Below are positions 5,102 to 5,560 of a stretch of 64,000 bases of DNA, piece by piece. The DNA lies in NCBI RefSeq assembly GCF_002854065.1, contig NZ_CP024147.1; one strand, given 5' to 3'. Origin of the DNA: Escherichia coli (lineage in GTDB: Bacteria > Pseudomonadota > Gammaproteobacteria > Enterobacterales > Enterobacteriaceae). The position numbers were made by a program, and so were the translations under genes. Under the pieces are notes generated by a model. It was not told the DNA's origin, made no database searches, and saw only the letters and a program-made list of their open reading frames with translations. The stretch's first letter is position 1. Each line of letters starts with the position of its first letter.

Positions 5102-5560
5102 ATGAAACTTTTAAAAGTAGCAGCAATTGCAGCAATCGTATTCTCCGGTAGCGCTCTGGCAGGTGTTGTTCCTCAGTACGGCGGCGGTGGCGGTAACCAC
5201 GGTGGTGGCGGTAATAACAGCGGCCCGAATTCAGAGCTGAATATTTATCAGTACGGTGGTGGTAACTCTGCACTTGCTCTGCAAGCTGATGCTCGTAACT
5301 CTGATCTTACTATTACCCAGCATGGTGGTGGTAACGGTGCAGATGTTGGTCAGGGCTCAGATGACAGCTCAATCGATCTGACCCAACGTGGCTTTGGTAA
5401 CAGCGCCACTCTTGATCAGTGGAACGGTAAAGACTCTCATATGACAGTTAAACAGTTCGGTGGCGGCAACGGTGCAGCAGTTGACCAGACTGCATCTAAT
5501 TCCACCGTCAACGTAACTCAGGTTGGCTTTGGTAACAACGCGACTGCTCATCAGTACTAA
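5102..5560 (+). CDS. csgA: Major curlin subunit CsgA, 152 aa
   Basis: Signal peptide, Gly-rich N22 segment, five imperfect repeats of the S-x5-Q-x-G-x-G-N-x-A-x3-Q type. Confidence 0.95.
   Translation: MKLLKVAAIAAIVFSGSALAGVVPQYGGGGGNHGGGGNNSGPNSELNIYQYGGGNSALALQADARNSDLTITQHGGGNGADVGQGSDDSSIDLTQRGFGNSATLDQWNGKDSHMTVKQFGGGNGAAVDQTASNSTVNVTQVGFGNNATAHQY

Follow-up and report, generated by a model that had tools for sequence, protein, structure and literature searches.

In-frame length polymorphism of a glycine tract in the N22 segment of the Escherichia coli curli subunit CsgA

Curli subunits and short codon repeats in bacteria

The major curli subunit CsgA of E. coli K-12 is the reference for structural and functional work on N22, and both CsgA and N22 find wide use, whether for tagging proteins for secretion or as scaffolds of engineered living materials. 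N22 is a secretion-targeting segment (PMC7217966, PMC6957492), and in published numbering the mature protein starts at G21 (PMC7217966). In the cryo-EM structure of CsgFG with the N22 of CsgA, residues 2-7, VVPQYG, are the sole ordered part, with Val3, Gln5 and Tyr6 being critical, and deletion of N22 leads to loss of the Congo-red phenotype (PMC6957492). NMR describes CsgA as intrinsically disordered, its glycine-rich repeats remaining mostly unassigned, and removal of N22 changes the conformational ensemble of the protein (PMC7217966).

CsgA proteins of Salmonella and other Enterobacteriaceae share the layout Q[YWF], glycine-rich stretch, SGP[ND] before the first curlin repeat, R1. In several genera the linker is far shorter or devoid of glycine runs, being reduced to three residues (PGH) in Kosakonia and to two (SS) in C. 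amalonaticus. One Salmonella cluster of 145 aa reads QW-GGGGNS-SGPD; relative to the usual Salmonella sequence, QWGGGGNHNGGGNSSGPD, it lacks the whole NHNGGG unit.

Repeats within coding or regulatory DNA are best known from the contingency loci of Haemophilus, Neisseria and Campylobacter, which consist of many units, are usually non-triplet or promoter-located, and switch expression on and off frequently. The csgA tract described here is like such simple-sequence loci in its probable mutational mechanism, repeat-mediated slippage, and unlike them in that its unit is a codon, its perfect run has only two or three units, the frame stays intact and close relatives seldom differ. Expression switching by frameshift was not seen, the sole out-of-frame case being a 4-nt deletion in strain 162.2, nor does the tract form a long unstable array, for which at least six units are typical and two to three perfect ones were found. 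Since both hallmarks are absent, the csgA tract is not a contingency locus.

A closer likeness is to the in-frame trinucleotide microsatellites of bacteria: whole codons are gained or lost within a series of near-identical codons, the variants recur, be it on unrelated or on identical backgrounds, and the events fall at the longest perfect repeat. With two or three perfect units the csgA run is nevertheless very short, and repeat-finding software does not score it; Tandem Repeats Finder, run over positions 5000-5700 of the window with a minimum score of 30, reported no repeat, the tract being too short. This brevity accounts for a low rate of change and for only three length states. The literature search returned nothing relevant on a glycine-tract polymorphism in csgA. 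The polymorphism is nonetheless implicit in RefSeq, where CsgA proteins of 150, 151 and 152 aa stand as separate entries, and in that sense it is ordinary and already known.

The csgA gene of the window and its glycine tracts

The window, a 64-kb stretch of E. coli DNA, carries csgA at 5102..5560 on the plus strand, an open reading frame of 152 aa plus stop with a 5-Gly allele of the tract. Its product is identical to RefSeq WP_000771428.1, annotated as curli major subunit CsgA and shared with E. coli O157:H7. Against NF007470, the NCBIfam equivalog model for CsgA, it scores 238.6 bits (cutoff 160), residues 1-152 aligning to profile positions 1-150, while the model for CsgB reaches 35.1 with a cutoff of 165. 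Pfam Curlin_rpt (PF07012) matches three stretches with 96.2 bits (cutoff 20.7), and the amyloid core with curlin repeats R1-R5 occupies 5231..5557 (plus strand; repeat layout from PMC7217966). The CsgG-recognition motif is present as GVVPQYG at aa 21-27. In all testable membership features the gene is thus a textbook csgA. Its DNA matches csgA of strains 100416 and CUWW06 at 100% and that of O157 strains at 99.3%, the latter with the same first glycine tract.

The Sec signal peptide, aa 1-20 (MKLLKVAAIAAIVFSGSALA; 5102..5161, plus strand), can be placed from published numbering (PMC7217966). It is followed at 5162..5230 (plus strand) by the secretion-targeting segment that corresponds to K-12 N22 and comprises 23 aa in the window, GVVPQYGGGGGNHGGGGNNSGPN, a string contained in the translated reading frame (PMC7217966, PMC6957492). 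Written in parts, the mature N-terminus reads GVVPQY GGGGG NH GGGG NNSGPN. The CsgG-docking motif VVPQYG lies at 5165..5182 on the plus strand (PMC6957492), its final residue being the first glycine of tract 1. Tract 1 itself, GGC GGC GGT GGC GGT, encodes five glycines at 5180..5194 (plus strand) and is the part that varies in E. coli, with three, four or five glycines. An Asn-His spacer, AAC CAC, follows at 5195..5200 (plus strand) and is unchanged across 27 aligned csgA sequences; tract 2, GGT GGT GGC GGT, with four glycines, occupies 5201..5212 (plus strand) and was constant in length in the variants examined.

The DNA of 5180-5215 reads ggcggcggtggcggt aac cac ggtggtggcggt aat, exactly as quoted in the original prediction, which described it as a homopolymeric glycine tract of GGC and GGT codons. 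The codons were correctly named, but the glycines form two short runs, of five and four residues, split by Asn-His, and not a single homopolymer. At the DNA level the longest perfect repeats in the window's tracts are (GGC)2 and (GGCGGT)2 only. In the 64-kb window one run of the form (GGN)5 is observed where 0.11 would be expected; at least one match was obtained in 11 of 100 shuffles, so the bare motif is weakly unexpected and not statistically remarkable. The tract is considered a real feature because virtually every E. coli csgA gene has it, not because of these statistics.

K-12 CsgA (WP_000771437.1, 151 aa) shares with the window's protein the gene, its place in the operon, the signal peptide, N22 with VVPQYG, both glycine tracts and the five curlin repeats. 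The two genes differ at 28 nucleotides, the proteins at four residues of the repeats (T/A, N/D, E/H, S/T) and by one glycine in tract 1, which reads (GGC)3GGT with four glycines in K-12 and has five in the window, whereas tract 2 is identical. A difference from the K-12 allele, which had earlier been raised as a possibility, thus exists, and it is the sole length difference of the gene.

Length alleles of tract 1 and their origin

The most probable reading, at roughly 85%, is that tract 1 belongs to a flexible linker within N22, that it undergoes occasional in-frame slippage and that the resulting variation is nearly neutral. On this reading the glycine-rich linker would connect the CsgG-docking VVPQYG to the first amyloid repeat; its GGC and GGT codons would misalign at replication, with the occasional gain or loss of a whole codon, and the outcome would be the in-frame polymorphism of three, four or five glycines seen in E. 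coli.

The alleles were surveyed in 5426 complete E. coli genomes, a sample from which Shigella and draft genomes were left out. Megablast found csgA in 5382 of them, with spans of both 459 and 456 bp, and an alignment of 12 representative alleles mapped the 3-bp difference exactly to tract 1. Tract alleles were then assigned with 32-nt probes, in which each 28-mer seed spans the entire tract and both borders so that a match identifies an exact allele; the scheme was validated locally. The denominator is the 5368 genomes that have the tract-bearing part of csgA.

Four alleles account for 99% of genomes: GGC GGC GGC GGT, with four glycines, in 3950, and three alleles with five, namely GGC GGC GGT GGC GGC (ST131-type) in 640, the window's GGC GGC GGT GGC GGT in 422, and GGC GGC GGC GGT GGC in 297. 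Much rarer are GGC GGC GGT (three glycines, 16 genomes), (GGC)4GGT (five, 6 genomes), (GGC)3 (three, strain 2A only) and GGC GGT GGC GGT (four, KKa019 only). By length, four glycines are encoded in 3951 of 5368 genomes (73.6%), five in 1365 (25.4%) and three in 17 (0.3%), with 35 (0.65%) left without an assigned allele; the reading frame is kept in all 5333 assigned ones. An independent long-flank probe agrees, placing 1367 genomes in the identity band of the 5-Gly alleles and 3985 in that of the 4- and 3-Gly alleles. The lengths follow lineages, with O157:H7, ST131 and Nissle having five glycines and K-12 and BL21 four. The expectation that tract length varies between strains is therefore borne out among complete E. 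coli genomes, and the opposite outcome, an identical tract in every aligned allele, is contradicted already by the 12 representatives.

Rare alleles were sought with a single concatenated probe of 13 kb carrying 206 hypothetical rare alleles, the common ones being excluded. It had been checked beforehand, with both real and synthetic alleles, for self-detection, cross-hits and masking by DUST, and its segments were separated by random 32-nt spacers, as short spacers or spacers of N lead DUST to mask many segments. One hypothetical allele, tract 2 as GGT GGT GGT GGT GGC GGT in K-12 context, was not part of the probe, and (GGC)6, (GGC)5GGT, (GGT)5GGC and (GGT)6, which were masked in every design, were covered by the long-flank probes instead. 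All 57 matches were mapped back to their segments. No length variant of tract 2 was detected by this probe in complete E. coli genomes; a synonymous variant of tract 2, (GGT)4, occurs in 33. Likewise, no tract 1 of six or more glycines was found in these genomes with long-flank 6- and 7-Gly probes, whose best full-length matches were ordinary 5-Gly alleles, and none of two or fewer with a 2-Gly probe, whose best matches were 3-Gly alleles. In metagenomes, a pattern for alleles of at least six glycines (CAGTACGGN, six times) returned no csgA among the matches listed (at least 120 loci; 241 million records); the pattern is too unspecific for a collection of that size, and a longer flank, e.g., GTTCCTCAGTAC, is needed. 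In strain 162.2, one of the genomes without an assigned allele, the 4-nt deletion falls at the edge of the tract; its csgA carries a frameshift annotation, as does its csgB.

Evidence for recent change comes from genes that are identical outside the tract. The haplotype of 2015C-3163, with four glycines, also occurs with three (S40, NCTC9082) and, as (GGC)4GGT, with five (Z1323CEC15, CD45, 602687), and PS1Thumoskin9, likewise (GGC)4GGT, is 1 nt away from it. Across 1770 nt of flank, a single nucleotide separates NCTC9082, with three glycines, from Z1323CEC15, with five. The K-12 haplotype, with four glycines, also occurs with three in VR50, EP91B and 23CRST047, and the STIN95 haplotype, with five, recurs in strain 2A with (GGC)3, a loss of 6 nt. 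The 3-Gly allele thus lies on two local haplotypes that are 18-25 positions apart over the 1770-nt flank. Two further rare forms go back to substitutions instead: the (GGC)4GGT that 100181 and ZF8-1 carry on the O157 backbone, and GGC GGT GGC GGT of KKa019, whose backbone is that of CNR85I8 and differs from the window's. Taken together, these comparisons point to at least four independent recent whole-codon indels on three haplotypes, each within or beside an uninterrupted (GGC)3 run. Whole-codon indels at such a run are what replication slippage predicts, and from these unit-sized changes within a perfect repeat we infer that slippage is the mechanism. Its rate is low, with at least four detectable events in about 5400 genomes, which are non-independent.

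The window's own allele is built differently from the K-12 type, in which recent indels were detected, in that its GGC run is broken by GGT after two units. No 3-Gly allele was found with the AAC context of the window type, GGC GGC GGT being set in the K-12-type AAT context in all 16 genomes, and neither GGC GGC GGC GGT GGC GGT, the 6-Gly product of the window allele, nor a 7-Gly product occurs in complete E. coli genomes. One candidate contraction of the window allele, GF43, with four glycines in AAC context, was rejected as less likely: its backbone is B2-like, which makes recombination or an older event the more likely origin. Across alleles with (GGC)2 only, no indel was seen in 1062 genomes (422 window-type plus ST131-type), where about one would be expected at the (GGC)3 rate, a difference that is not significant. 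The GGT interruption may stabilise the window's allele. The earlier suggestion that the tract could be slippage-prone is supported for alleles with (GGC)3, where whole-codon indels are found on identical haplotypes; the interrupted allele in which it was made shows none in 422 genomes, a sample too small to speak for stability, and tract 2 is of constant length.

The strongest competing account regards four and five glycines as an old and stable dimorphism that arose once or twice and has since been spread by homologous recombination, with no ongoing slippage to speak of. Much in the distribution of the major alleles fits it. E. coli csgA falls into three deep classes, O157-like, K-12-like and B2-like, which are 26-38 of 459 nt apart; the K-12-like and the B2-like class each hold both lengths; and the 5' parts of the gene appear mosaic, as in SCU313, where a K-12-like 5' end sits on a B2-like gene, and in E166 and GF43, where the linkage of tract length to the next variable site is broken. 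Mosaic 5' parts and the presence of both lengths within classes imply that recombination has shuffled an old 4/5 dimorphism, and intragenic recombination can explain how the two lengths are distributed over the deep classes. The restriction of 99% of genomes to four tract alleles also suits this account. Nor is the old split a simple one-step duplication: the 5-Gly carriers, which include the window, O157, ST131 and others, show three distinct codon arrangements, and as the three common alleles differ in the placement of GGT, substitutions are needed besides an indel. What the account leaves unexplained are the rare alleles. Apart from the tract, the 3-Gly and (GGC)4GGT forms have the haplotypes of common 4-Gly alleles; two different haplotypes bear the 3-Gly allele, one haplotype occurs with three tract lengths, and recombination cannot make a tract string that is absent elsewhere. 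The account is partly refuted by these observations and, as a full replacement for slippage, appears unlikely; it probably accounts for a good part of how the major alleles are distributed and in this way complements slippage more than it replaces it.

The linker as a probable tether and the state of the curli operon

Since only VVPQYG is resolved in the CsgG complex, tract 1 sets in at the very point where the ordered contact stops, and the glycine tract is most likely a flexible, disordered tether. In Enterobacteriaceae CsgA proteins, the stretch that joins Q[YWF] to SGP[ND] is 2 to 13 residues long and contains zero to nine glycines, the window's 13 residues being the longest in the sample. 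Such disorder, and a linker length that is only loosely conserved from genus to genus, are reasons to expect near-neutrality, and the structural papers together with the variation between genera suggest that the gain or loss of one glycine is likely close to neutral. All length changes are multiples of 3 bp and therefore do not provide an on/off switch of the phase-variation type.

It may be asked whether the length is instead functionally tuned, through the reach and flexibility of the tether or through an effect of N22 on premature folding, with selection keeping lineage-specific lengths. Such tuning is very unlikely in our assessment, and scarcely more credit can be given to its more specific form, a slow "tuning knob" by which lineage-specific selection would hold five glycines in O157:H7, ST131 and Nissle and four in K-12-like strains and would bar lengths beyond three to five. 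If it existed, the number of glycines would alter secretion efficiency or the restraint that N22 exerts on premature amyloid folding. Two features of the survey are compatible with it, namely the restriction to three to five glycines in 5368 genomes and the association of allele classes with the lineages named above, and so is the shift of the conformational ensemble on removal of N22 (PMC7217966). Each of the first two is, however, predicted equally well without selection, the narrow range by a low slippage rate on two to three repeat units and the lineage association by descent alone. Furthermore, four and five glycines are not known to differ in function, the CsgG-bound motif stops at the first glycine with the remainder of N22 unseen in the structure, and the genera between which the linker spans 2 to 13 residues all retain curli genes. 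The narrow range could reflect selection or merely a low mutation rate.

It is barely credible that errors of sequencing or assembly in a GC-rich repeat produced the rare length variants, with the 4-versus-5 difference alone being real: the singletons 2A and KKa019 could be assembly errors and strain 162.2 carries error-like or pseudogene lesions (the 4-nt deletion, with csgA and csgB frameshifted), but the 3-Gly allele recurs in 16 complete genomes of diverse host, country and laboratory, four genomes have (GGC)4GGT on the 2015C-3163 background, one of them 1 nt off, and the changes are clean, whole-codon and frame-keeping, with intact CsgA annotated as WP_000771443.1 and WP_001504162.1.

Near-neutral slippage in a flexible linker, the preferred reading, matters little overall. 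For population genetics it would mean that recurrent in-frame slippage becomes visible species-wide from merely three identical codons. For users of N22, the natural alleles with three, four and five glycines (about 0.3%, 74% and 25%) and the shorter linkers found elsewhere suggest that the length can be freely changed.

For the window's genome the csgA allele is less consequential than a lesion in the divergent csgDEFG operon, whose csgD, csgE and csgF lie on the minus strand. The csgBAC operon lies on the plus strand, with csgB (curli minor subunit, nucleator) at 4606..5061 upstream of csgA, annotated equivalently in CUWW06 and 100416, and csgC (curli assembly chaperone) at 5619..5951, its ATG at 5619 being inside an open reading frame of 5523..5951; a csgC of 333 bp is annotated at that position in CUWW06. 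The gene order matches the annotation of 100416 and CUWW06. Directly 3' of the csgA stop, at 5576..5605 (plus strand), lies a terminator-like stem-loop followed by T8, with a predicted RNA folding energy of -18.6 kcal/mol (z = -5.2); a consensus terminator scan reported none 3' of csgA, although folding gives this strong hairpin with its T8 tail.

The regulator gene csgD, which encodes an activator required for transcription of csgBAC, is split by an IS1 element of 768 bp at 2941..3708 (plus strand), corresponding to an IS1B family transposase annotated in CUWW06. A perfect 9-bp target duplication, CGTCCAGAG, flanks the element at 2932-2940 and 3709-3717. The 3' fragment of csgD, encoding the C-terminal part of the regulator and separated from its start by IS1, lies at 2426..2940, and the 5' fragment, with the N-terminal 48 codons, at 3709..3853, both on the minus strand; the latter falls in an open reading frame of 3704..3883 that contains MFNEVHSIHGHTLL. 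Both fragments have their counterparts in CUWW06, where two csgD pieces on either side of the IS1B transposase are annotated as pseudogenes. This split is what sets the window's genome apart from O157:H7, with which it has no difference in the CsgA protein. Because csgD is split by IS1, curli are probably not made in this genome, and its csgA allele is probably silent. The csgD gene is intact in strain 100416. Positions 1..6970 of the window are 100% identical, over 6970 nt, to E. coli CUWW06, a wastewater isolate from Thailand, and a Shigella origin, which csgD::IS1 had brought to mind, is rejected on that ground. The csgD::IS1 junction is found in identical form in one of the 5426 complete E. 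coli genomes, that of CUWW06.

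Divergence of csgA alleles and variation at the glycine tracts

Within E. coli, csgA (window 5102..5560) is unusually divergent: comparison of the window allele with the csgA loci of twelve other strains (L001-L012) reveals three deep allele classes lying 26-38 of 459 nt apart (6-8%). The 5' parts of the gene are mosaic in this comparison, and this pattern points to intragenic recombination. At the scale of complete genomes, only 342 of the 5382 carrying csgA have an allele with at least 99% identity to that of the window, and 5006 of the 5382 fall at 90-95%.

The second glycine tract of csgA (window 5201..5212; four Gly codons, GGT GGT GGC GGT) also has a synonymous (GGT)4 form, found in 33 E. 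coli genomes. Because this form occurs in both downstream contexts, AAT AAC (n = 26) and AAT AAT (n = 7), its distribution implies an origin through either recurrent C-to-T change or recombination. The synonymous form gives a perfect (GGT)4 run, yet length variants of this run were not seen. In Salmonella enterica, the CsgA protein P0003 (145 aa, from a cluster with 38 members) reads QWGGGGNSSGPD; the usual Salmonella CsgA reads QWGGGGNHNGGGNSSGPD at the same segment, and P0003 differs from it in lacking the NHNGGG unit. It looks as if the stretch between the two glycine tracts had been deleted through tract misalignment.

IS1 insertions in the window and at other csg loci

In the window an insertion element splits csgD, whose product controls curli and biofilm as their master regulator: the gene spans 2426..3853, with IS1 at 2941..3708 flanked by a perfect 9-bp target duplication, CGTCCAGAG (2932-2940 and 3709-3717). 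Of 5426 complete E. coli genomes, a single one shares this csgD/IS1 junction, that of strain CUWW06, which is 100% identical to the window over positions 1..6970. Imperfect junction matches occur in two more genomes, AVS0935 and VE-T9, and both also overlap IS1 in csgD. Another copy of IS1 lies at 18888..19655; it shares 99.87% identity with the one in csgD and has a 9-bp target duplication of its own, CGGCGTGGT. On either side of it lie a yceA-like ORF at 17411..18517 and, on the minus strand, a cytochrome b561-like ORF at 19915..20556, and the insertion may interrupt the gene normally located between these two.

Other E. coli strains, too, carry IS1-family elements in their csg loci. In EP91B the 3' end of csgA is cut off by IS1X2, and in AH04 an IS1A lies directly upstream of csgA, at the expected place of csgB.

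A stem-loop downstream of csgA, and altered csg genes in other strains

Between csgA and csgC, directly behind the stop codon of csgA, a stem-loop followed by T8 occupies window positions 5576..5605; its folding is strong (-18.6 kcal/mol, z = -5.2), and a scan for consensus terminators did not report it.

Altered csg genes are also found in three other strains. In 162.2 (locus positions 543..570), csgA has lost 4 nt (TACG) from the 5' edge of tract 1, the length-variable glycine tract (window 5180-5194), and is thereby frameshifted; since csgB of this genome is annotated as frameshifted too, either the curli locus has decayed or the assembly is error-prone. In PS1Thumoskin9 csgD is truncated. 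In strain 100181 the annotated csgC (locus positions 1949..2302) is 354 bp long, against 333 bp as a rule, an indication that its stop codon or 3' end has changed.
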